Below are positions 1,189 to 52,397 of a stretch of DNA of 64,000 nucleotides, in pieces. Under the pieces are notes generated by a model. It searched no databases. It had not been told where the DNA came from and saw nothing but the letters and a program-made list of their open reading frames with translations. This DNA comes from an uncultured Candidatus Entotheonella sp. Its GTDB lineage: Bacteria > Tectomicrobia > Entotheonellia > Entotheonellales > Entotheonellaceae. Position 1 is the first letter of the stretch. Each line of letters begins with the position of its first letter. The translations under genes were made by a program, and so were the position numbers. The stretch lies in NCBI GenBank assembly GCA_965217185.1, contig OZ244252.1, positions 3,480,338-3,544,337 on the forward strand. Reading direction: 5' to 3'.

Positions 1189-1252
1189 CGTGCGCCGGAA
1201 TGACCGCTTGGGGCGTTGGACGGTGCGGCACAGGTGCTCTGCGCGTCGCAAC

Positions 1253-2331: not shown

Positions 2332-2448
2332 CTGAAATCGCCAAATCGCTGCGCTGCGCGGACCGTCCAATTCAGCAGTGCGTCCATAGACGAACTGCCC
2401 ATCATTTCGGATTGTAGTGATTTCGTTGTCGAAGACGGTCCACCACGG

Positions 2449-3690: not shown

Positions 3691-3691
3691 C

Positions 3692-3989
3692 TCACACCTC
3701 CCCCGCATTCACGCGGTCATACTGGGCATGTGTTCCCACGAAGCGTACGTAAACGATCCGCGCTGGGTAATTGATCTTCACCACGAGCCGATAGGCATTG
3801 CCCCTGATGTTGAAGACCACCCGGTTGCCACCGAGGATGCTGGCGTTGGGGTATTTCGCCTTGACCTTGGCTGGCCGGCCCATCCCAGGCCTCCTTCTCG
3901 ACCTCCCGATACCAGGCGAGCAGCGGCTCCTCGGCGTCCACATGTCGTTCCCAGAATTCCCGAAGCGGCTTCTTGCTGATGATCCGCAT
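3692..3989 (-). pseudogene. higB: HigB-family toxin, frameshifted
   Basis: The N-terminal 39 aa (MRIISKKPLREFWERHVDAEEPLLAWYREVEKEAWDGPA) are in one frame. The rest (AKVKAKYPNASILGGNRVVFNIRGNAYRLVVKINYPARIVYVRFVGTHAQYDRVNAGEV) is in another. The span is 298 nt, i.e. 3n+1. Removing the base at 3872 gives one 98-aa ORF. Confidence 0.75.
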
Positions 3990-4121
3990 GAATGCTGTGA
4001 ACCGGTCCCGTTAGATTGAAAGGTAGAATGATCCCAAATTTATTAAACCTACATTTTTCCAAATTATACGTCAACGGAAGAGCGCGAAATCGGATGATTC
4101 TTTCATACCCGCATCGCCGCG

Positions 4122-6115: not shown

Positions 6116-7182
6116 GCAGCGTAGGCTCTCGCCGCTTCGGCGCTGACGAGGGCCTCCGGGTCCGCCGTCTGCTCCACGAAGTCGCGCGCCCGCTGCAAGG
6201 CGTTGTGCATGTCTTCGGTGGCGGGCTGGTGGCGGGCGAATTTCACCAAGTCGCAGTGTTCCAGGAAGGCACTGAGCAGATCGCGGTGCGCGGCGATGGG
6301 CCCACCGGCAACGAGCATGGCTTCGAGAAACTCCTCCGTGGTCTGCTCCGGGGCGCGCAGGCCGAAGCGCCATTCGATGTAGTGCCGCAGGATGCCGGAC
6401 ACCCGCACGTAGAATTCCTCGATACGCTGCGAGGTGATGAGATCGTCGCTCTGCAAGCGGTCCAGGGCGGCCAGGGCCAACCCGTGCGCCAGTTGCGACG
6501 GCTCGCCGCGAAGCAGACGCCGGCGACGCGCTCGCCGCCACCACAAGATCGCCAGCACAGGGATCGCCATCGCCGCGGCGATGGCGATCCAGGCCCATAT
6601 CGGCAGGCCGCGCCAAGCCAGTTCGACCGGCGGCGCGATGTCTTTCGGTTTTTTGAGGTCGGCCCCTTCCGGCAGAATGGAGGTGACGACAATCTGGAAC
6701 GGCTCCGTGGTCAGTTGTTGCGGCTCCGCGTCCTCGGCGGCGCCCTCTTCGAGAAGCGTAATCGTCAGCGGCGGAATGGCAAGCTCGCCGACCTCCTCGA
6801 CTTCCAGCAGATACTCCCGCTTCCATTGGCGCAGTTGCGGATCCAACATTTCGGGGTCGGGTGTGAAGTCGTTGCGCACCAGGAAGGGGCCGAGGCGGTC
6901 GAAGATCTCCGGGAAGATGACGCCCTTGTCAGCAGGCGCGGTGACCGACAGGGTCAGCCGCAGTTGATCGGCCATCCCCATGCTGCGCCGGTCGGCGGCC
7001 AGGGTGACAATCACGTTGCCCTCGGCGACGTGCTGCTCAAGCGATTCCTCAACCGCAGTGCCCGATTCCTGTGCAGCCGCCTGTATTGCCATCAGGACGG
7101 CAAGGCACGTCAGGAGCACCAGCCAAGTGAACCGCCCGCCGCGATCAATAGTCCGAAACGCCCCGCCAAGATGAGTCATCAT
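6112..7182 (-). CDS. Membrane protein of the Bat cluster (BatD/DUF4381-like)
   Basis: Signal peptide, a central TM helix (LPIWAWIAIAAAMAIPVLAILWWRRARRRR) and a helical C-terminal domain. It sits between the DUF58 and VWA genes. Confidence 0.6.
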   Translation of the reverse strand: MMTHLGGAFRTIDRGGRFTWLVLLTCLAVLMAIQAAAQESGTAVEESLEQHVAEGNVIVTLAADRRSMGMADQLRLTLSVTAPADKGVIFPEIFDRLGPFLVRNDFTPDPEMLDPQLRQWKREYLLEVEEVGELAIPPLTITLLEEGAAEDAEPQQLTTEPFQIVVTSILPEGADLKKPKDIAPPVELAWRGLPIWAWIAIAAAMAIPVLAILWWRRARRRRLLRGEPSQLAHGLALAALDRLQSDDLITSQRIEEFYVRVSGILRHYIEWRFGLRAPEQTTEEFLEAMLVAGGPIAAHRDLLSAFLEHCDLVKFARHQPATEDMHNALQRARDFVEQTADPEALVSAEAARAYAA

Positions 7183-12764: not shown

Positions 12765-15700
12765 CACTACGATTAGCAGCTCGATTCCGGCCGTGCTCCT
12801 GGCGGTCGCCCTGATTCTGGGCATCGCCGGCTGCGACGTAAGCGACGATAGGGACCTCGTACCGACCTTCGAACAGAGCAGTATTTCGGACAAGACTTAC
12901 GTCCAGAACCTGGCGATCGACAGCGAAACGCTGCCAGAGGCCATCGGCGGCGACGGCACGCTGACCTACACCATTTCACCGGACCTGCCGGCGGGCCTGG
13001 CCTTTGAGCCGGTGACACGGCTGCTGTCCGGCACCCCCACCGTGTCGCAGTCGGCGACCCTGTACACCTACACGGCAACGGATAGCGATACGGCGGACCC
13101 GGACTCGGCGTCGCTGACCTTCACCATCACGGTGGAGGAAGACCTCGTGCCGACCTTTGAACAGAGCAACATCCCGGACAAGAGTTACGTCCACCACCTG
13201 GCGATCGACAGCGAGACCCTGCCAGCGGCCACCGGCGGCGACGGCACGCTGACCTACGCCATTTCCCCGCACCTGCCGGCGGGCCTGACCTTTGACCCGG
13301 CGACGCGCCTGCTATCCGGCACCCCCACCACGGCGCAGCCGGCAACCCTCTACACCTACACGGCAACGGACAGCGATACGGTAGACCCGGACTCGGCGTC
13401 GCTGACCTTCAGCATCACGGTGAGAGACCTCATGCCGACCTTCGAACAGGCCAGCATCCCGGACAAAAGCTACGACCGGGACCTGCCGATCGACAGCGAG
13501 ACGCTGCCGGCGGCCACCGGCGGCGACGGGGCGCTGACCTACGCCATTTCCCCGCACCTGCCGGCGGGCCTGACCTTTGACCCGGCGACGCGCCTGCTAT
13601 CCGGTACGCCCACCACGGCGCAGCCGGCAACCCTCTACACCTACACGGCAACGGACAGCGATGCGGTAGACCCGGACTCGGCGTCGCTGACCTTCAGGGT
13701 CACGGTGGAGGCAGTGGCTTCGGTGAGCATCTCGGCCGCCGCCACTGAAGTGAACGAAGGCGACGACCGCCGGCCCATCGGCGTCACGCTGACGCTGAGC
13801 GAGGCCGTCACGGGCGAGGTCGCCATTGCCCTGGCCTCCACCGGCACCGCGCGGCTGGGCAGTGACTTCGACCTCGCCAGCACCGAAGTCACGGTCGTCG
13901 AGGGCAGCACCCAAGCCACGACGACGATCACACCGATTCGCGACCTGGAGGCGGAATACGATGAAATCATCACCCTCAAGATCGACTCGGTTGCCGGCAG
14001 AGGCGAAATCGGCGCGCCGTCGTCGGTCCGTATCGTCATCCGCGACCTCGGCGCGCCGCTGCCGAACGAATACGCGGTGTTGGACGCGTATATGCTGTTA
14101 TGGGGCGGCGAGACATACGACATCGACACAGACGCCCTCTACTTGACCTATATCGTCAGGAACACCGGCCGTGTCGCCGCGTCTCCCACCGAGGCCATCT
14201 TGTTAACCACGACGGACTTGTTCTCCCAAACCATCCCTTTCCGGCCGCTCTCCACCCGGTCGGTGCCTGCCCTGGAGCCGAATGGTTCACGGTTCTTTGA
14301 CACGATCTCGGTTTCGTTCGACGAATTGGTCCCCGGCAGCAACAACTACCTTGTGCTCGTGGTCCGGCCGGTCGCCGAAGAGGACCCGGACGGCAGGGGC
14401 GGCGTGGAGGACTACACCGCCGTTTTTCTGAGCGACGGACACCGTATCCCCACTACCTGCACGGGCTTCGAGCGAGACACCAAGCCGGGAACCCGGGATT
14501 CCCTATTCGAGCAGCAGTGGGCGCTCCGCAACACCGGCCAGATGTCCTTCGCCGCCAACGGCGGGGTGGCCGGCCAGGACCTGAACATGGGGCGGACGCT
14601 GGTCGACGGTCCAACCGGCGCCGGGGTGCAGGTGGCCGTGGTGGACACCGGCCTGGAAATCTGCCACCCGGACCTCGCCGCCAACGTCGAACCCGGTCTG
14701 TCATACAACTTCAATCACCCGGACTGGCTCGGCGCACGGGCCGACGATCCGTTCCTGCCGACGGTGCTGGGCGATCACGGCACCAGCGTGGCCGGACTGA
14801 TCGCCGCGGCGGCGAACAACGGCGTCGGCGGGCGCGGCGTGGCGCCGGAAGCGCGCCTGCGCGGTTTCAATTTCCTTTCGTTTCCTCTGACGTCCGCATA
14901 TCTCGATGCTCTCGGCATGAGCAGCGAGAGCCCACAGTCCGACGACGTGCACGTCTTCAACATGAGTTTTGGCTCCTCCGGCAGCGCAGAGAACCTGACG
15001 GTTGACGAGAGGGAACTGTTCCGGGTCGGCGTCATAGATCTCCGGGACGGCCGGGGCGCTCTGTACGTCAAGGCCGCCGGCAACCAATTCGACGACTGCA
15101 CCGAGCTGGACGACGATCGACAGCCGGTTGCGCCGCGGCTCGATCTCAGCGCCGAACTCGGCTGCTTCGCCGCCAACCTGGATGGCGAAAACAACCTGCC
15201 CTACGTGATCGTGGCAGGCGGCTTCAGCGCCAACGGCAAACGCTCGAGCTACTCGTCTGCTGGCGCCACCTTGTGGGTGGTGGCCCCGGCAGGGGAATTT
15301 GGCTCGGATCACCCGGCCATGATCACCACCGACCAGATGGGTAGCGACCGCGGCTATGTGCAGTTCGGCCGCGGCTTGATCGCTGGCACCGAGGCCAACC
15401 CGCTGGGTGATTACATCAGCCTCTTCAACGGCACCTCGGCCGCCGCCCCCAATGCGTCGGGCGCTATCGCCCTGCTGCTGGAGACGCAGCCTGAACTCAC
15501 TTGGCGCGACGTGAAGCACATCCTCGCCAAAACGGCCCGCCGGCTGGACGCAGACATCCCCCGCGTGCGGGCGGCATTCGGCGGCACGCCGGCGGTGCTG
15601 CAGCACGGCTGGATCACCAATGCCGCCGGCTACCACTTCCACAACTGGTACGGCTTCGGCGCCATCGACGTGGACGCCGCGGTGGCTTTTGCCGCTACCC

Positions 15701-39438: not shown

Positions 39439-39482
39439 CCCGAATGGCGTGACCGGATATAACTCAATTGAGGACCGAGTCG

Positions 39483-40582
39483 ATGGCTCGTAAGGCCAAA
39501 AGCCGAAAACAGATCGAAACCCTGCGGCACCAGGACGCCTCGCGCAAGAACATCCCCACCGCCGAGTACCAGGCGGTGATGGCGGCGGACGACCGCAGCC
39601 CCATCGAGGTCGCCTACGGTCGCCGCAACCGCGACCTCGACCCACAGCTCGTCTGGCGCGGCAAGGACGCGCAGGATTGGTCCGACCTCGTGGTGCAGGC
39701 GCCGCCGCTGTTCATCCAGGAAAAGGTTCACCCCAAGATGCTGATCGACGACCTGCGGCGCCGCAGCGAGGAAGCAGGGGCCGGGAAAGCCGACGACGCA
39801 TCCGGCTTCCAGACCGATCTCTTCGCCGACTTCAACGGCCTGCCGAGCGCCGACGCCCGCACCGAGTTCTACCAGCACGACGCCAACTGGTCGAACCGTA
39901 TGATTCTGGGCGACAGCCTGCAGGTGATGGCCTCGCTGGCGGAGCGCGAGGGGCTGCGCGGCAAGGTGCAGTGCATCTACGTCGATCCGCCCTACGGCAT
40001 CAAGTTCAACTCCAACTTCCAGTGGTCCACCACCAGCCGCGACGTGAAGGACGGCAACGCCGCCCACATCACCCGCGAGCCGGAGCAGGTGAAGGCGTTC
40101 CGGGATACGTGGCGGGACGGGATTCACTCGTACCTGACGTACCTACGGGATCGGCTGACCATAGCGCGGGATTTGCTGACGGAGAGCGGCAGCATCTTCG
40201 TGCAGATCGGGGACGAGAACGTGCACCGGGTGCGGGCGCTGATGGACGAGGTTTTTGGGGAGGAGAACTTTATCGCGGAAATCGCGTTCCAAAAGACGTC
40301 TTCGACATCTTCAGAATCACTGTCAGGTGTTTTTGATCTACTTCTCTGGTTCGGCAAATCGATGACTTGGAAATATCGACCGCTGTTTCAAATTAAAGAG
40401 CTTGGCGGTACGGGAACAACTCAATATTCCTTTGCTGAAAATGCCGATGGTTTAAGGCGAACACTTGCCGAATGGGATGAGTTAAGCGTCAACAGGAAAT
40501 TTCTCAAAGTTTTTTCTCATGGTGATATCACGAGCCAAAGACCAGCGCAGGGAGAAGATGTTCGTAAATTCACTTACGAAGG
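39483..40582 (+). pseudogene. mod: Type III (beta-class) N6-adenine DNA methyltransferase Mod, 5' fragment, interrupted by an IS
   Basis: Motif IV in CIYVDPPYGIKFNSNF. The reading frame runs into the IS and stops at 40641-40643. Confidence 0.85.
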
Positions 40583-42076
40583 AGCCACTTGCAAAACTCC
40601 GCTAGTTTGGCCTCGGAGCGGTTGTCATGAGACCGTACGGTGAATCATTTGCCGTCGGTGGTTCCAATTGCCACGAATTCAGCCATGGCGGTGCCAAGTT
40701 CCGGCTCCCGTCTTGCGATGCGGACGCAACTCTCCCCCCTGCGTACAGGACAGCAGCGTGTGCCGGGATGGAGGAAACGGGGCCGCGAGACCAGCTTCAG
40801 GTCACCAAGCGCATCAACTGATCAACCGTGAGCGCCACAATCCCGAACATCAGATGACACAGCACCTTGGCATGGCCGCGCACGCGCACGCTGCGACCTC
40901 CGAATTCATCCTTGAGGCGACCATTGACGCGCTCGACGGTCGAGCGTTCGTGGTAACGTCTCTCCTCAGACAGGACCAACCCACAGGCACGCCGTGCCTG
41001 CCTCTCCTGCCGCAGCGCCTGCTTGCGCGCGCCGCTGCGGGGGTTGACGTCGATGATCGCAACATGACCCAGGGCGCGGCTGTGGGCGCGGATTTCCGGG
41101 GCATCGTAGGCGCTGTCCATCAGGTCATACAGGTTGCGGACTCGCTCCGCCGTCAGGGTCGCCAGCGGGATGGCGACTTGGCTGTCGTGCAGCGACGCCG
41201 AGGTAAGCAGGCAACTGACCGGGATGGCGCCGTCGGCCGCGTCAATATGCAACTTGTAGCCGCTCCATGACGTCTGATAGCCTTTGGCGTCGCGCTTGAC
41301 GCCAATGTCACAGGCGTACGGCAAGTCGGCGAGCATCTCCGGCAGGGTCATGTTGCGCTGGCGCTCCAGACGGCGCGGCTCCGTGGGGCGCTCCTCGCCC
41401 TTGCGCGGACGCCCGCGCCGCCGCTTCGGCTTGGCCGGCTGCGGCGCCTTCGGGGTCGGTCTCTCGCGCCCTTCAATCGCCGTCGAATCGCGTGAAATAT
41501 GGCCTGCCAGACGCTCACCCTGGGTGCGTTTGATCAGCGCCTCGTGCAGGTGGCTCGGCAAGGCGCTGTCGGCAAATTCGGCAAAGGCACGTGAAAACGT
41601 CGCCTCGCTCGGAATGTGCTTGACGCTACGCCAGCCGCACAACCGGCGCAGGGTGCTGTCGTGGCGCAGACGATCAAGCAACATCCGGGTGCTAACCAGC
41701 GCGAAGACGGCCTTGGCGATGAAGGCGCGGGCTAAGGCCGCGCGGTCGCTTGGCGGACAGCCGCGACGCCGGTGCTGGTACGGCAGCAGCGTTTCCACCC
41801 GCACCCATTCGAGCACCATGACGAAGCGCTGATGGCGTTCCCCCAGCGCCCCGATCGTTTCCTCAAGCTGCGGGAACAGCAGCGCTTGAAAGCAAGACCA
41901 GTAACTCGATAGTATCTCACGTAAGGCCATTGGGGTCGTTCCTCCTGATTCGGTTGTTTGACAACTCAACAGAATCAGAAAGCGGCCCCAATGTCCACCA
42001 ATCAGCCCCAGAGCCTGCCCCGTGCTTGACACGGAGAAAGAAAATCCCACTCGTACACGCAATTCTGCAAGTGGCT
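40583..42076 (-). mobile_element. Insertion sequence (IS4/IS5-superfamily DDE transposase), 1494 bp, with 6-bp target duplication CGAAGG
   Basis: Terminal inverted repeats AGCCACTTGCA (40583-40593) and TGCAAGTGGCT (42066-42076). CGAAGG occurs at 40577-40582 and again at 42077-42082. Confidence 0.85.
40797..41930 (-). CDS. DDE transposase (DUF772-like N-terminus plus DDE_Tnp_1-like core)
   Basis: MALREILSSYW..., PPSDRAALARAFIAKAVFAL, HISRDSTAIEG, LMDSAYDAPEI, RSTVERVNGRLKDEFG. 377 aa from the ATG at 41930. Confidence 0.8.
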   Translation of the reverse strand: MALREILSSYWSCFQALLFPQLEETIGALGERHQRFVMVLEWVRVETLLPYQHRRRGCPPSDRAALARAFIAKAVFALVSTRMLLDRLRHDSTLRRLCGWRSVKHIPSEATFSRAFAEFADSALPSHLHEALIKRTQGERLAGHISRDSTAIEGRERPTPKAPQPAKPKRRRGRPRKGEERPTEPRRLERQRNMTLPEMLADLPYACDIGVKRDAKGYQTSWSGYKLHIDAADGAIPVSCLLTSASLHDSQVAIPLATLTAERVRNLYDLMDSAYDAPEIRAHSRALGHVAIIDVNPRSGARKQALRQERQARRACGLVLSEERRYHERSTVERVNGRLKDEFGGRSVRVRGHAKVLCHLMFGIVALTVDQLMRLVT

Positions 42077-43454
42077 CGAAGGAAAATCATTTCAGGTAAA
42101 GAAGGGCACTTTCAAGACAGACGCGAGTGGTCTGGAACGTATCTCACGCGCAAAACGCATGATCTTCATTGGGAACACGCTTCGATATGTTCGGTTCTTA
42201 GATGACTTCAGTATCTTCCCCTTCTCGAACCTCTGGACTGATACCACCACATCTGGATTTTCTGACCCCAAAGTATACGTCGTCCAGACGAACCGCTCGG
42301 TGGTTGAACGTTGCATCCTCATGGCCACCGACCCCGGCGACCTTGTCCTCGACCCGACCTGCGGCGCCGGCACCACCGCCTACGCCGCCGAGCAGTGGGG
42401 CCGCCGCTGGATCACCATCGACACCTCTCGCGTCGCCCTGGCGCTTGCCCGCGCCCGCATCATGGGGGCGCGCTACCCCTGGTATCTGCTCGCCGACAGC
42501 CATGACGGACAACTGAAAGAAGCCGACATCGCCCGCAAGGCGCCCGCCGACACGCCCACCTACAACGACATCCGCCAAGGGTTCGTGTACGAGCGCGTGC
42601 CCCACGTCACCCTCAAGTCCATCGCCAACAACGCCGAGATCGACGTGATCTGGGAGAAATGGCAGGAGACGATTCAACCGCTGCTTGCGCAACTGGGCGT
42701 CGTTGTAGGGGCGACGCATGCGTCGCCCCTACCAGAATGGGAAATCCCAAGAGACCTGCCAGACCACTGGCCGCCGGAGGCTGCCCCGCTGCACGAACAG
42801 TTCTGGACGGCAAGGGTCGTGCGCCAGCGCGAAATCGACGCCTCCATCGCCGCCAAGGCGGACTCCGAATACCTCTACGACAAGCCTTACGAGGACAACA
42901 AGAAGGTGCGCGTTGCCGGGCCGTTCACCGTCGAAAGCCTGTCGCCGCACCGCCTGCTGGGGGTGGACGAAAACGACGAACTCATCGACAACGTCGCCGA
43001 AGACAAACTCGGCTACGGCGGCAAGCAGGACTTCGCCGGCATGATCCTGGAGCACCTCAAGACCGCCGGCGTCCAGCAGGCGCACAAGGACGACCGCATC
43101 ACGTTCGCCGCCATCAAGCCCTGGCCCGGCTACCACGTCTGCGCCGAGGGAACCTACGTCGAAGGCGACGCCGATTCCGGCGCCGAGAAGCGCGCCGGCA
43201 TCTTCATCGGCCCCGAGTTCGGCACCGTTTCCCGTCCCGACCTTGTGGAAGCCGTCCGCGAGGCCGCCGACGCCGGCTTCCACGTGCTGATCGCCTGCGC
43301 CTTCAACTACGACGCGCACGCCTCGGAGTTCAACAAGCTCGGCCGCGTCCCCATCCTCAAGGCCCGCATGAACGCCGATCTGCACATGGCCGGCGACCTC
43401 AAGAACACCGGCCAAGGCAACCTCTTCGTCATCTTCGGCGAGCCGGATATTACA

Positions 43455-43482
43455 GTGGTCAGCGGCCAGTGGCTGGTGACCA
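43455..43482. repeat. Four tandem heptamers GTGGTCA GCGGCCA GTGGCTG GTGACCA (left flank of the nested cassette)
   Basis: Read directly from the sequence. Confidence 0.75.
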
Positions 43483-43506
43483 GCAAGGGCAGGATGGTAG
43501 CGAATT

Positions 43507-43875
43507 ATGAGCACGTTAAAGAGTTATCAGGACTTGGAAGTGTGGAAGAAATCAATCGACTTGGCAGAGACGGTCTATCGGCTCTCGGCGCAGTTTCCGC
43601 CGGACGAGAAATACGGTCTCAGCAGCCAGGTACGGAGATCGGTGGTCTCGATCGCAGCGAACATCGCGGAGGGAGCGGAGCGACAGGGGACGAGGGAGTT
43701 TCTGCAATTTCTGGGGATCGCGAGCGGGTCTCTAGCCGAGACGGAGACCTTCCTGATTCTGGCGCAGCGATTGGGGATGGCCTCACCGGATCAGGTGGCT
43801 CCGATATTGAATCAGGCGGGAGAAATCGGGCGGATGCTCAACGGTCTGAAACGCTCGCTGCACTCCAGAACCTGA
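43507..43875 (+). CDS. Four-helix-bundle protein (23S rRNA intervening-sequence protein family, PF05635-like), nested inside mod in the +1 frame
   Basis: MSTLKSYQDLEVWKKSIDLAETVYRLSAQFPPDEKYGLSSQVRRSVVSIAANIAEGAERQGTREFLQFLGIASGSLAETETFLILA is the family signature. Confidence 0.85.
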   Translation: MSTLKSYQDLEVWKKSIDLAETVYRLSAQFPPDEKYGLSSQVRRSVVSIAANIAEGAERQGTREFLQFLGIASGSLAETETFLILAQRLGMASPDQVAPILNQAGEIGRMLNGLKRSLHSRT

Positions 43876-43892
43876 GCAGCGCCGATTTCCCG

Positions 43893-43927
43893 CTTTCACT
43901 GACCACCGGCCACTGGTCACAAGTCAC
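43893..43927. repeat. Five tandem heptamers CTTTCAC TGACCAC CGGCCAC TGGTCAC AAGTCAC (right flank, inverted relative to the left array)
   Basis: Read directly. 43899-43918 is a 16/20 reverse-complement match to 43464-43483. Confidence 0.75.
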
Positions 43928-44376
43928 TGTTCATGGCGTCGACGTGTTCCACCCCAATACCGGCGAAATCCGCAGCGACAACGCCGACGGCATCGCCTGC
44001 TGGTTCGTCGACACCGATTACAACGAAGAGAGCTTCTTCGTCCGCCACGCCTATTTCCTCGGCGCCAGCGACCCGTACAGGGCACTCAAGACCACACTAA
44101 AAGCCGAAATCAACGAGGAGGCGTGGACGACGCTGCGCAGCGATACGTCACGGCCGTTCGCCAAGCCGCAGTCCGGCCGCATTGCCGTGAAGGTGATCAA
44201 CCATCTGGGGGATGAGGTGATGAAGGTGTTCCGGGTGTGAGGGCAGTTGGATGCCCAAATATAGGAAAATTAGCCGAGTTTATCGTCTTTTTATAAACTG
44301 GCATAACTTATCTATAAACGGTCCGAAATCGCTCACGTAAAGGGGCTAAGGTCAACGCGACAGCGGGGGATTTATC

Positions 44377-45912
44377 ATGGATCGACCCAATGACTCGGCG
44401 GCCACGGAAACGCGGCCCTCGATGTCTCCTGACGTTCGGATTTCGGTAACGAATTTCGGACCCATCACAGAGGGCACGATAGACCTGCGGCCGTTGACGG
44501 TATTCGTTGGCCCAAGCAATACGGGCAAGACCTATCTCGCAGTTCTGATCTACGCTCTTTACCGGGTTTTGGGTGGACTTCCTCGGGTCCCTGTCATGCA
44601 TCGGCATCGTTACGCTTTTGGACAAGCTCCCCGACCCGACCAATTGACAGACGAAGCAGTGCAGCAAGAAGAACTCCGGGATGTGCTGGAAAAAATGTCG
44701 AACTCAGAACAAGCATTCAGATTCTGCGACTTGCCCGAAAGTATGCGCGGCGTAGCACAGGTCGAACTCAGCGATCCGGACCGACTGGCGGCTGGTCTAG
44801 AGACCGAACTCCGTCGCTGTTTCGACCTTGATTCGATTTCCGATCTGGTTCGATTCTCCGGGCGCCCCGACGGCCTACAGTTTTCGCTGGCTGTCAGCGA
44901 GGAAAGCCAAGCTCTCTGGCGGTTCTGCATGGGTGTTTCTCAAACGGGTATCACGGCAAACGGACAAATCACCGAAGGCATGGTCCTCCTTCCCGAAGGC
45001 TGGTCGCACCAGAAGGAATGGAGACCTAGCTTTCTACCACCCCATTGGAGTCTGCCTGAAGCACTTTGGTCTACGACCAACGCCGCTAGAGATCAGGGCG
45101 AAACCCATTATCTGCCGGCCGCACGCGGCGGCATCATGCAGAGTCATCGCGTTATTGCAAGTTTGCTCCCAAAGCTTTTCACCAGGGCAAGGGTCGAACC
45201 TTTCGAGATTCCGACGTTTTCCGGCGTAATGGCTGATTTCATGGAGCGGCTCATCCTTTACCGAGGGGAGCGAAAGCGGCAGAACCCATTGAGAGAAATT
45301 GCCGATGCCTTTGAACGCGAGGTGCTTGCCGGGCGGATAGAGATTCGGAGGTTCTCAGCGAGTGGGTATCCAGAGTTCGTTTACCAACCCCAGGAAACAG
45401 AAGAGGACATTCGTCTGAGTCGTGCTTCGTCTATGGTCTCCGAACTCGCTCCCGTCGTGCCATTCCTTCGGGGCACCATCAACCGCGGCGACATGTTCAT
45501 CATGGAGGAACCCGAAGCCCATCTCCATCCCGCCGCCCAAACCCAGATAGCAGTGACTTTGGCGCGTATAGTGCGTGCCGGAGTGCGGGTCGTCGTCACG
45601 ACGCACAGCGACTGGTTGCTCCAGGAAATCGGCAACCTAATGCGGGAAGGGGAGTTGGAAGAACAGACTGGCAAGCCTACGAGCGAAGAAGGTCTTCCGA
45701 GTTCGCTGCGCCCCAGCGAAGTGGGCATCTGGCTGTTCCGTAAGGATGAAGACTCAGCGGGCTCCATAGTGAAAGAAATCCCGTTCAACCGCAGTGAAGG
45801 CGTCGAACCCGAGGAATATGAAGACGTTGCCGAGGAACTGTACAACCGTTCAGCGAACCTGCAGAACCGGCTCGAAGAAATAGCAGGGGATGCGGAACGC
45901 GACGATGAGTGA
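44377..45912 (+). CDS. ABC/SMC-like ATPase of the AAA_15/AAA_21 type (Septu PtuA / PARIS AriA-like architecture)
   Basis: Walker A VFVGPSNTGKTY. Walker B plus D-loop MFIMEEPEAHLHPAAQ. H-loop VVTTHSDWLL. Long helical insert between them. 511 aa. Confidence 0.75.
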   Translation: MDRPNDSAATETRPSMSPDVRISVTNFGPITEGTIDLRPLTVFVGPSNTGKTYLAVLIYALYRVLGGLPRVPVMHRHRYAFGQAPRPDQLTDEAVQQEELRDVLEKMSNSEQAFRFCDLPESMRGVAQVELSDPDRLAAGLETELRRCFDLDSISDLVRFSGRPDGLQFSLAVSEESQALWRFCMGVSQTGITANGQITEGMVLLPEGWSHQKEWRPSFLPPHWSLPEALWSTTNAARDQGETHYLPAARGGIMQSHRVIASLLPKLFTRARVEPFEIPTFSGVMADFMERLILYRGERKRQNPLREIADAFEREVLAGRIEIRRFSASGYPEFVYQPQETEEDIRLSRASSMVSELAPVVPFLRGTINRGDMFIMEEPEAHLHPAAQTQIAVTLARIVRAGVRVVVTTHSDWLLQEIGNLMREGELEEQTGKPTSEEGLPSSLRPSEVGIWLFRKDEDSAGSIVKEIPFNRSEGVEPEEYEDVAEELYNRSANLQNRLEEIAGDAERDDE

Positions 45913-46391
45913 GGTTCTCAACAAGCTCCGGTCACAAGTAGGCGCAGCAAATCTCAGCAATTCGTGCAGCCGGGACGGGTGCCAAGTTGATATCACGGAT
46001 GTGCCACGCAGCCGCGTCATCATAGACATGGACAAGGCGCTCTCAGCTTCCACTACGACAGGCAAACGATGTGATTACGTCCTGTTCTTCATGGATGCTG
46101 AAAACACGCTCGTAACGGTTCCCTTGGAACTCAAGAGCGGTGGTGTCGACTCAATATCGGAGGTCTGTGAGCAATTGCAACAGGGCGCAACATACGCCGA
46201 AGACCTTGCAAGGGAAGATTCCGAACCTATCTGTCGCCCGCTCCTGTTCCATGGCAAGGGCATCCACAAAGCGCAACGCCCTAAATTGAATCGCGCCAAG
46301 GTTCGTTTCCGCGGCAGGAGGCGGCAGGAGATTGACCATTGACACGACACGCTGTGGCGAGAATCTCATTCGTGCCCTGAAGGAGAAGTGA
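45905..46391 (+). pseudogene. Small PD-(D/E)xK-like putative nuclease, C-terminus frameshifted by a 10-bp tandem duplication
   Basis: The ATG at 45905 overlaps the ATPase stop (ATGAGTGA). GKRCDYVLFF...(about 15 aa)...VPLELKSG fits a D...ExK core. The current frame stops at 46340-46342. Without one repeat unit the ORF reads ...KVRFRGRRLTIDTTRCGENLIRALKEK* and ends at 46389-46391. Confidence 0.5.
46311..46330 (+). repeat. Perfect 10-bp tandem duplication GCGGCAGGAG GCGGCAGGAG
   Basis: Read directly from the sequence. Confidence 0.95.
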
Positions 46392-46459
46392 GCCCCCTGC
46401 CTACACATTGAGGCTGCGCATCCTTACTTCACCGGTAACGTCGAAAGGGGACGAATCCC

Positions 46460-46672
46460 ATGCGAAAACAGACCATCCAATACACCTCGCCCATCGACGC
46501 GCTGATTGCGGTGACCAAACAGTTGAGCATCTACGAAAGCCAGCACAAGATGGATTCGAAAGAGTTCTTTGACCAGTACAGCCGGGGCCAACTGTCCGAT
46601 GACGCAGTGTTCATCGATTGGGCCAACGATTACCGCCACTATCTGCACCTCCGTCGCAAGGAGCAACCATGA
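46460..46672 (+). CDS. Small 70-aa protein, first gene of a three-gene hicBA-containing operon
   Basis: Coding-like sequence with an ATGA overlap onto the hicB start. I recognise no family. Confidence 0.5.
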   Translation: MRKQTIQYTSPIDALIAVTKQLSIYESQHKMDSKEFFDQYSRGQLSDDAVFIDWANDYRHYLHLRRKEQP

Positions 46673-46872
46673 AGCTAAAGGTAATCATCCACGAAGCGGA
46701 AGAGGGTGGTTATTGGGCCGAGGTACCCGCCATCCCCGGATGCGCCACGCAGGGCGAGTCATTTGAAGAACTGCTTGGCAATCTCTACGAAGCCGTCGAA
46801 GGTTGCCTGTCGGTGGATGTTCGAGACATACCCACTTCAGATACCGACAGGGTTATCGAAATTGCTGTATGA
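46669..46872 (+). CDS. hicB: HicB-family antitoxin (UPF0150)
   Basis: MKLKVIIHEAEEGGYWAEVPAIPGCATQGESFEELLGNLYEAVEGCL. Confidence 0.8.
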   Translation: MKLKVIIHEAEEGGYWAEVPAIPGCATQGESFEELLGNLYEAVEGCLSVDVRDIPTSDTDRVIEIAV

Positions 46873-47030
46873 AGGCCGCTAGCGGAAAGCGATTTCGCCG
46901 ATTGCTGGAATCAAAAGGATGGCGCCTAATGCGCATCAGCGGCAGCCACCACATCTACGCCAAGGCGCATGCACCAATCCGCATATCAGTTCCGATTCAC
47001 GGCAATACGCCCCTCAAAATCGGCATGTAG
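46869..47030 (+). CDS. hicA: HicA-family toxin, probably truncated by an in-frame TAG
   Basis: MKAASGKRFRRLLESKGWRLMRISGSHHIYAKAHAPIRISVPIHGNTPLKIGM, then TAG at 47028-47030. The same frame continues RHFMKLADN to a TGA at 47058-47060, which looks like the normal HicA C-terminal helix. Confidence 0.7.
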   Translation: MKAASGKRFRRLLESKGWRLMRISGSHHIYAKAHAPIRISVPIHGNTPLKIGM

Positions 47031-47206
47031 AGGCACTTCATGAAGCTCGCGGACAATTGACGAATCGGAACTTTAGACCCCACCGCACCGACCCACTTTT
47101 GACGCAGCAGCCAAAATGCGCTAGAACTCAACACTTCCCAGCTTGCATCATCCCACTGTGCCGGCTCGCCGTGCGATACTCTCGCTCAACACACTTGGAG
47201 GTCATC

Positions 47207-48439
47207 ATGCCCAGGCTTCAATTTGGCGCCTTTCTTGCCCCGCACCACCCCATTGCCGAGAATCCGACGCTGCAATTTCGCGGCGACCTGGACTTCGTGG
47301 AACACCTGGACAAGCTCGGCTTCGACGAGTTCTGGTGCGGGGAACATCACTCGACGGGCTGGGAGATGATCGCCTCCCCGGAGATGTTTCTGGCGGCGGC
47401 CGGCGAGCGGACCCATCGCATCAAGCTCGGCACGGGCGTGGTGTCGCTGCCGTACCATCACCCCTTCATCGTGGCGCAGCGCATCGTGCAACTCGATCAC
47501 ATGACGGGCGGGCGCGCCATCTTCGGCTCCGGGCCGGGGGCGCTGCCTTCCGACGCCCATACACTGGGCATCGACCCCATGGTGCAACGCGACCGGCAGG
47601 ACGAGGCGATCGGCGTCATCCGGCGCCTGCTGCGCGGCGAGGAGCGCTTCAGCTACGAGTCGGACTGGTTCACCCTGCGCGACGCGTGCTTGCACCTGCT
47701 GCCGCTGCAGGAGGACCTGCCGTTCGCCGTCGCCTCCATTATCAGCCCGTCCGGCATGACCCTGGCGGGCAAGCACGGCACCGGGGTGCTGTCCATCGGC
47801 TCGATGTCCACCGAGGGGCTGCAAGCCCTGCCGTTGCAGTGGAGCTTCGCGGAGGAATCGGCGGCCAAGCACGGCAACACCGTGGACCGCCGCGATTGGC
47901 GCATCGTGATGTCGTGGCACGTTGCCGAGACGCGAGAGGAAGCTCGGAAACAGGCGCGGGAAGGACTGATGCACTGGCACAACGAATACTCGGTCGGCAC
48001 CCTGATGCGGCCCGGCGTGGAGGCGTTCAGCGACCCGGACGAGGCGGTGGACAAGACGGCTTTCGGGGAGGATTCGGCGTCGGTGATCGGCACGCCCGAC
48101 GATCTGGTGACCGCCATCCACCGCATGACGGAGCTGACCGGCGGCTTCGGAACCGTTATCGGCTTCGTGCACGACTGGGCAAATAGGGAGAACACGCTGC
48201 GGAGCTGGGACCTGGTGGCCCGCTACGTCATTCCGAAGGTGAACGGCATGCTGGCGGCGTACCGCGAGTCGCGCCAGTTCGTGGTGGAACACCGCGACTC
48301 GTTCCAGCGCGCCAACCAGGCGGTGCTGTCCAAGATCATGGAAAACGAGCGCGCCGCCGCGGCCGCGGAGCAGACCGGCAACGGACGCTTCGCCATTCCG
48401 GCGCACCACGCGCCGGACATGGAGAAAACGCCGTCGTAA
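47207..48439 (+). CDS. Luciferase-like (LLM class) flavin-dependent monooxygenase
   Basis: MPRLQFGAFLAPHH...LGFDEFWCGEHHS...VSLPYHHPF is typical of the LLM N-terminal region. Confidence 0.8.
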   Translation: MPRLQFGAFLAPHHPIAENPTLQFRGDLDFVEHLDKLGFDEFWCGEHHSTGWEMIASPEMFLAAAGERTHRIKLGTGVVSLPYHHPFIVAQRIVQLDHMTGGRAIFGSGPGALPSDAHTLGIDPMVQRDRQDEAIGVIRRLLRGEERFSYESDWFTLRDACLHLLPLQEDLPFAVASIISPSGMTLAGKHGTGVLSIGSMSTEGLQALPLQWSFAEESAAKHGNTVDRRDWRIVMSWHVAETREEARKQAREGLMHWHNEYSVGTLMRPGVEAFSDPDEAVDKTAFGEDSASVIGTPDDLVTAIHRMTELTGGFGTVIGFVHDWANRENTLRSWDLVARYVIPKVNGMLAAYRESRQFVVEHRDSFQRANQAVLSKIMENERAAAAAEQTGNGRFAIPAHHAPDMEKTPS

Positions 48440-48453
48440 GGCGGAAAACGGGA

Positions 48454-49902
48454 TCAGTAACCCGGCGGCGGGGTGAAGGCGAAACCGGCCTTTTCGAGCA
48501 ACTTGGCAAGGCCGATGGTTTTGAGGTCGCCGAACTCCGGCCCGATGATCTGCACCCCGATGGGCAGGCCGTTGGCGCTCAGCCCCCCCGGCACGATGGT
48601 GGCTGGCAGGTAGGCGCAGATCGCCAAACCGGCCCAGAAAATCTGCTGGAAATACGGCTGCGGTACGCCGTCCACCTTGATGGTCCGCTTCTCAAAACGC
48701 TGGTGATCGTGCTCGAACGCCGGCGTCGCCATGATCGGCGTAATCAGCGCGTCATGCGTCTTGAAGAAATCGTGCCAGGCCCAACGCAGATGGGTGCGCG
48801 CCTCGTTGGCCTTGGCGTATTCCCAGTGGCTGGCGGTCTGCCGCCGCAGCGTGCGGGCGCGGTCGCTTTGGTCGTCGGGGCTCAGGGCCGCCACGTCCGC
48901 CTGCATCTTGGCGTAGGCGTCCCCCGGCTGCCGGGCGGCCAGCGTGGCTTGCAGAAGCAACTGGTAGGTGTCATGAGCCTCATGGGCCACAAAGTCCGGC
49001 CGCGCCGTTTCGTCCACTGTACCCCCTGACCGTGAGATGGCCTCGGCAACCGCCTCGACTTTCCCCACCACCTCCTGGCTCACCGGCGCGATGTCGTCAT
49101 TCTTCCAAACCGCCACGCGATATTCGCCCAGCGACGTTTGGCTGGGCGCTTGCAGGTCCAGCCGGTAACCGGCCCGCTGTAGCTCGTCCGGGCCAGCGGT
49201 GGCCTGCACGCTGAGCTCGAGGTCCGCGGCGCTACGCGCCAGCGGGCCAATGACGGAAAGGTCAGACTGCGCCAGAATGCCCGGCGTGGCGTGGCCTCGG
49301 GGCGGCAACAGGCCCCACGTCGGCTTGTGCCCGAAGACGCCGCAAAAGTGAGCCGGATTGCGGATCGAGCCGCCGATGTCGGAGCCGATTTCCAGGGCCG
49401 TCATGCCGCTGGCCAGAGACGCCGCGGAGCCGCCGGAAGAGCCGCCGGGGCCGCGCTGCGGGTCCCACGGGTTGTTGGTGGTGCCGTAGACGTCGTTGTA
49501 ACTCTGGAAATCCGCCAGCCACAGCGGCACGTTCGTCTTGCCGAAGATGACTGCCCCGGCCGCCTTCAGCCGCTGAATCGCCAGCGCGTCCTCGGCAGCG
49601 ATGTTGTCCTTCAACTGCGGCGAGCCAAACGTCGTCGGCAGCCCCGCCACGTTAAACGAGTCCTTGCACGTCATCGGCACGCCGTGCAGCGGCCCCCAGA
49701 CCTCGCCGCGCGCCAGCGCTGCATCGGCCTGCCGGGCGCGTTCACGGGCGCGGTCGGCGTCCTGTACGATGATGGCATTGAGCTGCGGATTGAACCGGTC
49801 CACACGCTCCAGGTAGTGATCGAGAAGCTCCAGGCAGCCGATCTGCCGGTCGCGGATCAATTGCGCCAGCTCAGCCGCCGGCTTGAACGTCACGTCAGTC
49901 AT
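48454..49902 (-). CDS. Amidase-signature family amidase
   Basis: GGSSGGSAASLASGMTALEIGSDIGGSIRNPA is the AS signature. 482 aa. Confidence 0.9.
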   Translation of the reverse strand: MTDVTFKPAAELAQLIRDRQIGCLELLDHYLERVDRFNPQLNAIIVQDADRARERARQADAALARGEVWGPLHGVPMTCKDSFNVAGLPTTFGSPQLKDNIAAEDALAIQRLKAAGAVIFGKTNVPLWLADFQSYNDVYGTTNNPWDPQRGPGGSSGGSAASLASGMTALEIGSDIGGSIRNPAHFCGVFGHKPTWGLLPPRGHATPGILAQSDLSVIGPLARSAADLELSVQATAGPDELQRAGYRLDLQAPSQTSLGEYRVAVWKNDDIAPVSQEVVGKVEAVAEAISRSGGTVDETARPDFVAHEAHDTYQLLLQATLAARQPGDAYAKMQADVAALSPDDQSDRARTLRRQTASHWEYAKANEARTHLRWAWHDFFKTHDALITPIMATPAFEHDHQRFEKRTIKVDGVPQPYFQQIFWAGLAICAYLPATIVPGGLSANGLPIGVQIIGPEFGDLKTIGLAKLLEKAGFAFTPPPGY

Positions 49903-49940
49903 GTCTCTTCCTTATTCAAAGCTTGCTAGCCAGGGGCGGC

Positions 49941-52397
49941 CTACTCGCGCATCGCGGCGCCCAGTTCAGCGGCGGTGTGCTCCCGAATGCGCCGGTACAA
50001 CACGCGCACCTCGTCCTCGGTCAAACTGCGGTCGTCGGCCTGGAACGTCAGCGCGTATGCCAGGCTCTTCTTGCCGGTCGGAATCGGCTCGCCGTAATAC
50101 AGGTCGAAAAGCGTCACGTCGCGCAGCCACTCGCCGCCGGCGGCGCGAATGGTGTCCTCGACGGTCTGTGCCGGCAGGTCCTCGCCAACCACCAGCGCCA
50201 CGTCCTCCAGAACGGCCGGGAAACGCGAGATGGGCTGATAACGCCGCGGTTGCCGATGCGTCAGCAGGAGGGCGAGATTCAACTCCAGCATGGCCACCGG
50301 CTGGTCCGCCAAGTCGAACCGTTCGCACACCTGCGGGTGCACGTCGCCGGCAATGCCGAGCGCCTCGCTATTGACGGACAAGGCAGCGGTGCGTGCCGGA
50401 TGCAGGGCGGCGTGGGTGGCGGCGGCGAAGCGCACCTGCGGCACATTGAGGCGCTGCACCAGGATGTCGATGATGCCCTTGAGGTGCGTCCAGCCGAACT
50501 GCGGCGGCTCGTCGGCGGCGTGCCACGAGCGGGGCAGCAGCGGGCCGGTGACAGCGATGCCAAGATAGCGCTGCTCCAGCGGCAACTCCTCCCCGGCCTG
50601 CGGCCGGTACACCCGTCCGATCTCGAACAACGCCATGCGCTGGCGGTAGCGCCGGTTCGTGCTCAGGGTTTCCAGCAGGCTGGGCAGCAGCGATTGCCGC
50701 AGAAGCTGCCGCTCCTGGCTGATCGGATTGGCCAGACTGATGTAGTCATCGGCCACCGCCGGCGGTCCCTCGGCGCGGGCGCGGTTGATGCTTTCCAGGC
50801 TGGACAGGGAATAGGAGAGGATTTCGGTCAGGCCGCAGCCGACCAGGATGTCTCGGGTCTGCTCCAGGCCCTCCAGGTGGGGCTGTGAGCGTTGCGGCGG
50901 CAACACGTCGCGGATCAGCGTCGTCGGGATCTCGTCGTAGCCGTAAATGCGGGCGATTTCCTCAATCAGGTCGGCCGGCTCGGACACGTCGAGGCGGTGG
51001 CTCGGCACGGCGACTTCCAGGCAGGTGTCGCCGTTGTCGCGATGCGTCGTACAGCCGAACTCCAGAGACGTCAGAATCCGCGTCATGTCGGCGGGACTGA
51101 ATGCCATGCCCAGGATGCGCGTGACCTCCCCAGCCCGCAGCGTAATGGTCTTGGGGCTTGGCGGCGCCGGGTAGGTATCGGCGATCTCGGGATGCAGGGT
51201 GCCACCGCCCAGGGTCTCCATGAGCCGGGAAGCGCGCAGCAGGGCGGAAATCGTCAGGTCGGGGTCCACCCCGCGGCCAAAGCGCTGCGCCGCCTCGCTG
51301 TGCAGCCGCAACTGTTGGGAGGTGCGGCGGATGTTGACGAAATTGAAATTCGCCGACTCCAGAAAGATGTGCCGGGTGCCCTCGGTCACCTCGGTCGCCG
51401 CGCCGCCCATGACGCCGGCAAGGGCGATGGGGCCGGAGTCGTCGGTGATCAGCAGCATGTCGGTCGTCAATTGGCGCTCGACGCCGTCCAAAGTTTGCAT
51501 CGTCTCGCCCGGATGCGCCCGTCGTACCACGACGCCGCCTTGCAGCGTCTCGTGGTCGAAGGCGTGCAGGGGCTGCCCCGTTTCGAGCATGACGTAATTG
51601 GTGATGTCCACGATGTTGTTGATCGGGCGCTGCCCGGCATATTGCAACCGCCGCTGCATCCACGGCGGCGAGGGCTGGATGGTGGCGTTCTCGATCAGGG
51701 AAGCCGAGTAGCGGGCGCATAACTCGGCATCAGCGCTGGCCACGGAACCATACGCGGTGGTGGCAACGAGGGGTCCGGGCGCGGCGGCATCAGCAGGCCC
51801 GCCGCGCCAGGGCTGGCCGGTGAGGGCGGCGATTTCCCGCGCCAAGCCGATGATGCAGTTGGCGCGCGCCAGGTTGGGCGTCAGTTCGACCTCCAGAACG
51901 GTATCGCCCAGCGCGTCCGTTAACGGCTGTCCCACCGGCAGGTCGGGGTCGAGAATGATCACGCCGGTGTGATCGTCGGACAGCCCCAGTTCCTTTTCGG
52001 AGCAGACCATGCCGGCCGACTCCACGCCGCGGATGCTGGTGCGGCTGAGTGTCTGGAGGCGCGGCGTCTCGCTGTATCCGTCGTGCAGTTGCGCGCCCTC
52101 GACCGCGAAAGCCACCTTCTGGCCGCGGTCGCCCGGCTTCAGGTTCGGCGCCCCGGTAACCACCGTCTGAGGTTCGCCCTGCCCGTAAGCCACCGTGGCC
52201 AGCACCAAGCGGTCGGCGTGCGGATGGGCACTGACTTCCACCACCTCGCCGACGAACAATTTATTTCGCTGCCAGTCGGCCCCGATATGCTCAACCCCGC
52301 CCACCTCCAGGCCGGCCATCGTCATGCGGTCTACAAGGGTATCCAGAGGTATCGTAATCTCCACAAAGTCTTTCAACCAACTCAGCGGCGCGCGCAT
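49941..52397 (-). CDS. pheT: Phenylalanine--tRNA ligase beta subunit
   Basis: MRAPLSWLKDFVEI... start, B3/4, B5 and anticodon-binding regions. Immediately downstream of pheS. Confidence 0.95.
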   Translation of the reverse strand: MRAPLSWLKDFVEITIPLDTLVDRMTMAGLEVGGVEHIGADWQRNKLFVGEVVEVSAHPHADRLVLATVAYGQGEPQTVVTGAPNLKPGDRGQKVAFAVEGAQLHDGYSETPRLQTLSRTSIRGVESAGMVCSEKELGLSDDHTGVIILDPDLPVGQPLTDALGDTVLEVELTPNLARANCIIGLAREIAALTGQPWRGGPADAAAPGPLVATTAYGSVASADAELCARYSASLIENATIQPSPPWMQRRLQYAGQRPINNIVDITNYVMLETGQPLHAFDHETLQGGVVVRRAHPGETMQTLDGVERQLTTDMLLITDDSGPIALAGVMGGAATEVTEGTRHIFLESANFNFVNIRRTSQQLRLHSEAAQRFGRGVDPDLTISALLRASRLMETLGGGTLHPEIADTYPAPPSPKTITLRAGEVTRILGMAFSPADMTRILTSLEFGCTTHRDNGDTCLEVAVPSHRLDVSEPADLIEEIARIYGYDEIPTTLIRDVLPPQRSQPHLEGLEQTRDILVGCGLTEILSYSLSSLESINRARAEGPPAVADDYISLANPISQERQLLRQSLLPSLLETLSTNRRYRQRMALFEIGRVYRPQAGEELPLEQRYLGIAVTGPLLPRSWHAADEPPQFGWTHLKGIIDILVQRLNVPQVRFAAATHAALHPARTAALSVNSEALGIAGDVHPQVCERFDLADQPVAMLELNLALLLTHRQPRRYQPISRFPAVLEDVALVVGEDLPAQTVEDTIRAAGGEWLRDVTLFDLYYGEPIPTGKKSLAYALTFQADDRSLTEDEVRVLYRRIREHTAAELGAAMRE

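Follow-up and report, generated by a model that had tools for sequence, protein, structure and literature searches.

Organization of the locus and the ATPase encoded by gene A

The subject of this study is a pair of overlapping genes, here called A and B, in a 64,000-nucleotide stretch of the genome of an uncultured Candidatus Entotheonella sp. (contig OZ244252.1, positions 3,480,338 to 3,544,337 of the forward strand), referred to below as the window. Gene A encodes an ATP-binding cassette (ABC) ATPase of the OLD/SMC-like type and gene B, which is interrupted in this genome, a small predicted nuclease with a PD-(D/E)xK-like core (Table 1). An original prediction made from the sequence alone had placed both open reading frames (ORFs) here and had described the first as a 511-residue ATPase with Walker A, Walker B/D-loop and H-loop motifs, all of which we recover.

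Conservation of the ATPase was measured in an alignment of 42 homologues sharing 55-91% identity, in which the motif residues are nearly all invariant or at least 90% conserved. Within the block that combines the Walker B motif and the D-loop (DMFIMEEPEAHLHPAAQ) the invariant positions are D372, E378, P379, E380, A381, H382, L383, H384, P385 and Q388. Pfam recovers AAA_15 (3.6e-20) and AAA_21 (3.9e-09) in this protein and no nuclease domain, and its AlphaFold2 (AF2) model (predicted local distance difference test score, pLDDT, 72; predicted template modelling score, pTM, 0.77) retrieves PtuA of the Septu and retron systems, SMC, Rad50 and RecN as the top Foldseek matches in the PDB, with E-values down to 1e-12. 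Both results bear out the earlier description of an SMC/ABC-like ATPase devoid of a nuclease. Sequence profiles of the same protein match the solved structures of OLD, PtuA and UvrA only across the block from the Walker B motif to the H-loop, beyond which the protein continues for about 80 residues.

A frameshifted PD-(D/E)xK-like gene overlapping the ATPase gene

The ATG start codon of B overlaps the stop codon of A (ATGAGTGA), just where the original prediction had seen it, with an overlap of 8 nucleotides that points to translational coupling. In the window the frame of B is open for 145 codons only, up to a TGA stop at 46340-46342. When the window is aligned with L001, a metagenome contig to which it is 95% identical, B is seen to be frameshifted by a 10-bp tandem duplication (two copies of GCGGCAGGAG); when one copy is removed, a 158-residue, 17.6-kDa protein ending at 46391 is obtained, which is 99% identical to an intact database protein (P0001), and the repaired version that had been put forward earlier is therefore correct. 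The frameshift drops residues 138-158, a stretch of 21 residues comprising the last strand and helix and including the invariant C147. Judged from this comparison, the B gene of the window is a pseudogene with a shifted frame, provided that the duplication did not arise in assembly, and because its product would be truncated before C147 the A-B module is very likely inactive in this genome. Gene A has stayed intact where B has decayed.

Two alignments were used for B, one of 44 close members and one of 57 distant members that share only about 30% identity. C26, D57, E75, K77, Q90 and C147 are invariant in the first and at least 95% conserved in the second, in which D57, E75 and K77 reach at least 98%. 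The restriction-endonuclease-like D...ExK core recognized earlier thus stands, with the correction that the two core strings quoted for it are separated by 9 amino acids and not by 15. Four cysteines had been counted as well; a set of four is indeed conserved in the family (C21, C26, C56 and C147) and C110 is added in the close clade, but the window copy itself carries five.

Neither Pfam nor NCBIfam matched protein B, an HNH domain was not detected in it by these two or by PADLOC, and its sequence profile had no meaningful match in the PDB. Its AF2 model, computed from the alignment, is a confident one (pLDDT 92, pTM 0.88), with D57 on strand 58-63 and E75-x-K77 on the adjacent strand 69-77. 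The nearest PDB structures in Foldseek searches are consistently nucleases, with restriction enzymes at the top and their relatives among them, namely BsmI, BamHI, NucS/EndoMS, EcoO109I, FokI, N.BspD6I, Can2/Card1 and Cap4, with MUS81 also among the neighbours; the best scores are those of BsmI (8.5e-3) and BamHI (2.5e-2), with a template modelling (TM) score of about 0.4. The placement of the core on consecutive strands is that of a PD-(D/E)xK nuclease; the Foldseek matches to nucleases fall short of significance. Taken together, the model is compatible with a restriction-enzyme fold that has diverged strongly. The four conserved cysteines probably constitute a structural metal site (Zn or Fe-S) that only this subfamily has and that would probably join the catalytic strand to the N-terminal hairpin and to the C-terminal strand.

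Linkage and phyletic distribution of the pair

A homologue of A is found directly upstream of B in all 42 loci with upstream DNA, where it ends within about 65 nucleotides of the B start or overlaps it, the junctions ranging from overlaps of 4, 8 and 14 nucleotides to short gaps. The A-then-B arrangement is kept in relatives of only about 30% identity, and across loci the identity of A to its counterpart in the window is correlated with that of B (r = 0.89). Such strict linkage and co-divergence support the functional pair that the original prediction had postulated from the tight coupling of the two genes. A word-indexed search recovered 86 proteins of the B family, of 155-171 amino acids, and an exhaustive profile search 1,538 cluster representatives at E<=1e-3 (876 at E<=1e-10); with these numbers and an invariant adjacency to the ATPase, the association lies far beyond chance. 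Furthermore, the pair occurs both alone and beside restriction-modification (R-M) genes, and for this reason we regard it as self-contained. A scan for promoters and terminators around A-B gave nothing above shuffle expectation.

Tandem duplications were observed in two of the 42 loci, both from Poribacteria: in L021 (3197-6005) two copies of the ATPase precede a single B, and in L028 (4516-8459) the whole pair is duplicated and the second B is frameshifted. The family is present in 38 GTDB genomes, all of them metagenome-assembled genomes (MAGs), from Poribacteria, Latescibacterota, Acidobacteriota, Nitrospirales, Gammaproteobacteria and Alphaproteobacteria, and has been seen in uncultured MAGs and metagenomes only. 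The relatives from the first four of these lineages probably derive from sponge symbionts, and the taxa involved suggest horizontal spread within sponge-type microbiomes.

Relationship to PD-T4-4, PDC-M47, WonAB and other systems

The closest sequence models for both A and B are all models of defence systems. In the PADLOC set the ATPase matches PD-T4-4_A (1.6e-37, 128 bits, in two stretches) and PDC-M47A (5.7e-26, 89.5 bits), the best PD-T4-4_A stretch (residues 331-495) running past the H-loop into the C-terminal extension; the AriA, Old and GajA models match it at 1e-22 to 1e-8. For the B protein of the window the same check yields only a marginal match to PDC-M47B (4.8e-4), which aligns residues 26-93 with profile positions 39-106 of 183, and no match to PD-T4-4_B at E<=1. 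Across the family the PD-T4-4_B model matches 4 of the 44 close members, weakly (best 7.6e-4), and PDC-M47B matches 31 of these 44 (best 9.7e-8) and 27 of the 57 distant ones (best 2e-8), with none among 100 family members scanned attaining a member-level PDC-M47 score.

The original prediction had not recognized an ATPase paired with a small PD-(D/E)xK-like protein as a named system. This claim fails, because PD-T4-4, WonAB and PDC-M47 all have this same architecture of an ABC ATPase with a small PD-(D/E)xK protein and the PADLOC models of PD-T4-4 and PDC-M47 show a detectable relationship to both A and B. The pairing is hence already known, and no new principle of immunity is involved here. 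The correspondence with named systems holds at the level of the superfamily and not at that of the family models.

PD-T4-4 is an anti-phage system that was experimentally selected in E. coli in 2022 and is carried on an element resembling integrative and conjugative elements (Vassallo et al., PMC9519451); it has been listed as a PD-(D/E)xK nuclease with a P-loop NTPase/ABC ATPase (PMC10952713; bioRxiv 10.1101/2025.07.10.664194; 10.1101/2024.01.29.577857). Searches of plasmid and phage collections with A by tblastn gave remote partial matches only, which led us to genuine examples of PD-T4-4 on Enterobacterales plasmids, one of them being E. coli plasmid CP057079.1, where A scores 862 bits and B 357. 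A genuine PD-T4-4_B alignment was built from this example, and profile-profile comparison (hhalign) of the B family with it gave probabilities of 81-93% and E-values of 1.2e-5 to 3.8e-7 over the catalytic core. The best of these alignments (92.9%, E 3.8e-7) covers 81 columns spanning C-D...(E/D)-x-K-S...Q-L and equates RCDYVLF...ELKSG...QLQ of the B family with SCDLVLI...DQKSK...QLE of PD-T4-4_B. Gene A is matched to genuine PD-T4-4_A at 98%, with its Walker B/D-loop block aligned. PD-T4-4 resembles A-B in being a two-gene, A-then-B operon of a nuclease-less, AAA_15-type ABC ATPase followed by a small PD-(D/E)xK protein, with homologous ATPases, including their C-terminal extensions, and homologous catalytic cores in the B proteins. 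It differs in that its B protein is of about 190-210 amino acids, as against 158 here, and retains just one of the four conserved cysteines, the one beside the catalytic Asp, and in that its ATPase has a smaller first insert than the product of gene A.

PDC-M47 is a phage defence candidate in PADLOC-DB v2 that was picked out by guilt-by-embedding in BREX, DISARM and type I R-M loci (bioRxiv 10.1101/2024.01.29.577857); a literature search on the name itself returned no paper. Of the models it is the one that matches the B family best, if weakly, and it matches A well; like A-B it is found in or beside R-M loci, but the match covers only about 70 of some 185 model positions for the B of the window, and PDC-M47 is itself a candidate only.

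In WonAB, described in 2025 from the WASA-1 prophage of V. cholerae, an OLD-type ABC ATPase, WonA, is joined by WonB, a PD-(D/E)xK variant of 16.1 kDa; neither gene and neither active site can be dispensed with (PMC12137116). WonB is toxic when overproduced, its toxicity needs WonA and the ATPase activity of WonA, and its action stops translation with the genomic DNA remaining intact (PMC12137116). Its authors link it to PD-T4-4, and in their account an operon of an 'OLD-ABC ATPase + novel REase' (restriction endonuclease) reported by Krishnan et al. in 2020, present in about 1% of genomes, is tied to WonAB (PMC12137116). The likeness to A-B that we draw here is taken from the published description of WonA and WonB. 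In both systems the OLD-type ABC ATPase stands alone and its partner is a PD-(D/E)xK variant of very small size (16.1 kDa with catalytic K71 in WonB, 17.6 kDa with K77 in B), and the ATPase motifs are comparable in order and spacing, with K34/R182/E300/H333 in WonA and K51/R250/E378/H410 in A; going by the motif order in PMC12137116, R250 would be the equivalent of R182. All the features of a WonA-type ATPase are seen in A, the motifs being present and invariant and a Pfam nuclease domain lacking. In its size and in the position of the catalytic Lys, B resembles WonB more than PD-T4-4_B. The first ATPase insert is about 50 residues longer in A than in WonA, and, unlike the prophage-borne WonAB, the A-B family has no viral copy in a scan of IMG/VR.

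Other named systems with ATPases of this build were considered and rejected. Septu and retron PtuAB also combine an ATPase with a separate nuclease, and PtuA is the closest solved structure to A (Foldseek E 1e-12), but the partner there is an HNH protein, none of which is detected here, the sequence likeness is confined to the block from Walker B to the H-loop, and with the NCBIfam PtuA model, whose cut-off is 500 bits, the score is 19.9. OLD, Gabija GajA and PARIS AriAB share with A the OLD-type deviations in the ABC motifs; these systems use fused or partner TOPRIM or DUF4435 domains, neither of which was detected in A or B. The MAD3 ATPase of MADS is likewise dismissed (NCBIfam antiphage_MADS3, 23.5 bits against a cut-off of 420).

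Predicted function of the A-B module

Based on these observations we propose that A-B is quite probably a divergent member of the class of anti-phage systems that join an OLD-type ABC ATPase to a small PD-(D/E)xK protein, as in PD-T4-4, WonAB and PDC-M47. Within this class, as gauged by sequence models, both components are remote homologues that remain below member level and make up a divergent sister family, because their model scores are far under those of true members.

WonAB furnishes the best mechanistic model for A-B, that of an abortive, ATPase-dependent arrest of translation, and by this analogy A-B would likely function as an abortive-infection-type module, for which we infer the mode of complex formation, the trigger and the target as follows. 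The ATPase would dimerize through composite ATP sites and hold the nuclease on its C-terminal extension, which is presumed to be the docking site for B because of the WonA model in PMC12137116. The ATPase dimer would then sense an infection cue, with ATP binding or hydrolysis licensing B to cut nucleic acid in a metal-dependent fashion by means of D57, E75 and K77. Rather than bulk DNA, the substrate may be one of the RNAs used in translation (tRNA or rRNA), and its cleavage would halt phage development, the infected cell being lost.

Several observations weigh against this proposal. The ATPase of the window scores 128 bits on PD-T4-4_A, as against 301-862 for full-length plasmid relatives, which match over their whole length in a single stretch, and the B protein of the window less than 20 bits, as against 269-357 for genuine PD-T4-4_B; since the scores on the PD-T4-4 and PDC-M47 models are this far under those of true members, function is being transferred over a large distance. 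The B model has no Foldseek match at E <= 1e-3 in the PDB or BFVD. No homologue of the family was found on plasmid, phage or IMG/VR contigs: tblastn of B against the plasmid and phage collections gave no match, the IMG/VR scan for B none, and no related ATPase turned up in the phage collection. Lastly, many A-B loci in Poribacteria have housekeeping rather than defence genes as neighbours.

The genomic island and cassette-like repeats at the mod 3' end

In the window A and B belong to an island extending over about 32.9-47.1 kb, with the order helix-turn-helix gene, type III res, a gene coding for a Schlafen/AlbA_2-HATPase_c_4 protein, an interrupted mod, A, B and HicAB (Table 1). The A-B-HicAB segment (44000-47400) has a GC content of about 55%, as against about 67% in the flank at 47200-51800, whose genes (a luciferase-like monooxygenase, an amidase and pheT) are of the housekeeping type. 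The low GC is consistent with horizontal acquisition of this segment, and its position next to type III R-M genes and HicAB agrees with the defence-island setting that had been suggested earlier. Because an insertion sequence (IS) element splits mod, the type III R-M system of the window is probably inactive as well; with mod disrupted by this transposase insertion the island as a whole is decaying, and the A-B module in it is probably dead.

Some further features of the island were recorded. Relative to its homologues, the mod ORF contains an insertion of about 459 nucleotides (window ~43461-43919), across which the mod frame is open; the insertion carries, in another frame, a gene for a 23S_rRNA_IVP/bAvd-like four-helix bundle (43507-43875; Pfam 3.3e-39), and L018, an alphaproteobacterial MAG, has a homologous insertion at the same site (~2049-2509). 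In L001 an 813-residue HATPase_c_4 protein is encoded directly upstream of A in place of mod. HicAB is preceded by an ORF of 70 codons (46460-46672), an arrangement conserved in L001.

Table 1. Features of the A-B module and its surroundings in the window, and repeat-associated features of related loci (coordinates are those of each sequence)
Sequence	Feature	Coordinates	Strand	Evidence or remark
Window	Gene A, OLD/SMC-like ABC ATPase, 511 aa (amino acids), no fused nuclease domain	44377..45912	+	ORF, Pfam, PADLOC, AF2, Foldseek
Window	Walker A / P-loop GPSNTGKT, residues 45-52	44509..44532	+	G45 P46 S47 N48 G50 K51 T52 invariant
Window	YLPAAR, residues 245-250, Q-loop position with conserved Arg	45109..45126	+	6/6 residues invariant
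Window	ABC-signature-like RASSMVSE, residues 349-356	45421..45444	+	R349 S351 S352 M353 V354 E356 invariant
Window	Walker B and D-loop DMFIMEEPEAHLHPAAQ, residues 372-388	45490..45540	+	Motif conservation, hhalign
Window	H-loop TTHSDW, residues 408-413	45598..45615	+	6/6 residues invariant
Window	C-terminal extension of A, residues ~431-511, beta-hairpins then long terminal helix	45667..45909	+	AF2 secondary structure
Window	ATGAGTGA, B start codon (ATG) overlapping A stop codon	45905..45912	+	ORF calls; translational coupling
Window	Gene B, pseudogene here, small PD-(D/E)xK-like nuclease, intact form 158 aa / 17.6 kDa	45905..46391	+	ORF, database homologues, AF2
Window	Catalytic core of B, C56-D57 (46070-46075) to E75-L76-K77 (46127-46135)	46073..46135	+	Conservation; aligns to PD-T4-4_B C-D...D-x-K-S
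Window	10-bp tandem duplication, GCGGCAGGAG x2	46311..46330	+	Alignment with L001
Window	3' end of type III mod ORF (...VINHLGDEVMKVFRV*)	44161..44240	+	Recurs as direct repeat on both sides of A-B in related loci
Window	Type III res, ResIII, 1040 aa	33984-37106
Window	Schlafen/AlbA_2 + HATPase_c_4 protein, 584 aa	37271-39025		Embedded between res and mod
Window	mod, N-terminal part	39468-40643
Window	DDE_Tnp_1/DUF772 transposase (IS element)	40797-42062	-	Splits mod
Window	mod, C-terminal part	42159-44240
Window	HicB-like antitoxin	46618-46872		Downstream of B
Window	HicA toxin	46803-47030		Downstream of B
L008	mod-end repeats	355-386 / 4206-4237 / 6472-6509
L012	mod-end repeats	367-446 / 4269-4348 / 6477-6525
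L015	mod-end repeats	971-1050 / 6481-6531
L018	mod-end repeats	2683-2837 / 4436-4480
L039	mod-end repeats	4323-4398 / 6470-6579
L086	mod-end repeats	12969-12995 / 13732-13755
L091	mod-end repeats	398-424 / 1528-1606
L008	SIR2_2 + TPR gene	396-4187
L010	SIR2_2 + TPR gene	580-4233
L012	SIR2_2 + TPR gene	452-4255
L039	SIR2_2 + TPR gene	533-4300

At related loci each inserted unit is followed by a direct repeat of the last 30-80 nucleotides of mod (...GATGAAGGTGTTTCGGGTGTGA, coding for GDEVMKVFRV*), and these repeats share a right boundary located exactly at the mod stop codon. The cargo that they bound downstream of mod includes a SIR2 gene, an ABC+DUF4276 gene pair, a CX5R-phosphatase-like gene and A-B itself; the window has the mod copy of the repeat only. 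The copy after B is sometimes fused in frame, which results in B proteins with a Mod-like GDEVMKV(L/F)RV tail. A SIR2_2 + TPR protein of about 1,220-1,270 amino acids is encoded between mod and the ATPase in four MAGs, of which two are from Latescibacterota, one is from Nitrospirales and one from an unclassified bacterium, and other inserts in this position code for an AAA protein or for an AAA_21+DUF4276 pair. No recombinase was seen. A metagenome scan with the mod 3'-end motif recovered 70 res-mod loci, none of which carries A-B; a downstream repeat is present in only two of them, and in both it bounds other cargo. This implies that res-mod and A-B are separable and that A-B acts as one cassette at the mod 3' end. 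The repeats resemble an integron-like array or serial scars of integration. Going further, A-B might be one cargo cassette of an integron-like array, undescribed so far, whose anchor is the stop codon of type III mod, an extension of these observations that we hold to be rather doubtful.

Alternative explanations

The setting next to mod raises the question of whether A-B could be an adjunct of the adjacent type III R-M system, forming with it a four-gene res-mod-A-B unit in which the pair would serve as a PrrC-like guard that fires when a phage disables R-M. The same res/mod family, or its scars, precedes A-B in 13 of the 16 loci of the closest clade (B identity at least 50%), which are L002, L007-L015, L018, L039 and the window and represent at least five phylum- or class-level lineages; Mod and B of this clade share the C-terminal ...GDEVMKV(F/L)RV tail, and there are precedents in PrrC and other ABC-ATPase effectors within R-M loci (bioRxiv 10.1101/2024.01.29.577857). 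However, about 25 Poribacteria loci and the distant relatives have A-B without res or mod, and SIR2, AAA and ABC+DUF4276 genes separate mod from A in several loci. Moreover, the sequence of the common tail also follows the SIR2 gene, where it is non-coding, and so looks like a recombination scar. As the 70 res-mod loci from the metagenome scan lack A-B, we down-weight this explanation and regard it as unlikely.

A toxin-antitoxin or addiction module that stabilizes the island, with B as the toxin, A as the antitoxin and no dedicated anti-phage role, appears still less probable. The genes are small, overlapping and mobile and lie in a low-GC island beside HicAB, Pfam describes AAA_21 as a domain of a 'putative AbiEii toxin, type IV TA (toxin-antitoxin) system', and overproduced WonB is toxic, but this toxicity requires WonA and its ATPase activity, which is the opposite of what an antitoxin does (PMC12137116). 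Further, the ATPase is 3-4 times the typical antitoxin size and has every catalytic ABC motif invariant, and it is B that has decayed here with A intact, whereas from a classical module of this type one would expect loss of the toxin to wait until the antitoxin is dispensable.

Scarcely credible is a housekeeping pair for DNA repair or chromosome maintenance, with an SMC/RecN/Rad50-like ATPase and a NucS/EndoMS-like nuclease, for although the Foldseek neighbours of A include the heads of SMC, RecN and Rad50 and those of B include NucS/EndoMS and MUS81, and some Poribacteria loci adjoin genes for a DNA ligase, an HhH-GPD glycosylase, an AP endonuclease and a UvrD-like protein, the structural similarity of B to repair nucleases falls short of significance, a long coiled coil is absent from A, the nearest sequence models are all of defence systems, the pseudogenization, tandem duplication and variable neighbourhoods of A-B do not suit such a role, and its patchy presence in different phyla, where distant lineages share 40-60% identity, indicates horizontal transfer.

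General considerations

With A-B read as a divergent relative of the PD-T4-4 and WonAB systems, the class of mini-nucleases controlled by ABC ATPases extends well past Proteobacteria. The B family, with about 1,500 clusters, lacks a Pfam or NCBIfam model and is marginal in the PADLOC models tested, and new profiles would improve the annotation of defence genes in genomes of this kind. Its set of four cysteines provides a testable structural difference from PD-T4-4_B. The copy in the window is a decaying remnant, and its value lies in the definition of the family and in the cassette structure beside mod. Of the leads from this analysis, the repeats of the 3' end of mod are the most interesting: if they do reflect dedicated site-specific insertion, or a functional C-terminal tag shared by Mod and B, they would explain how defence genes come to be embedded beside R-M systems, and the cysteine-rich B subfamily would then be a second-line effector coupled to R-M.

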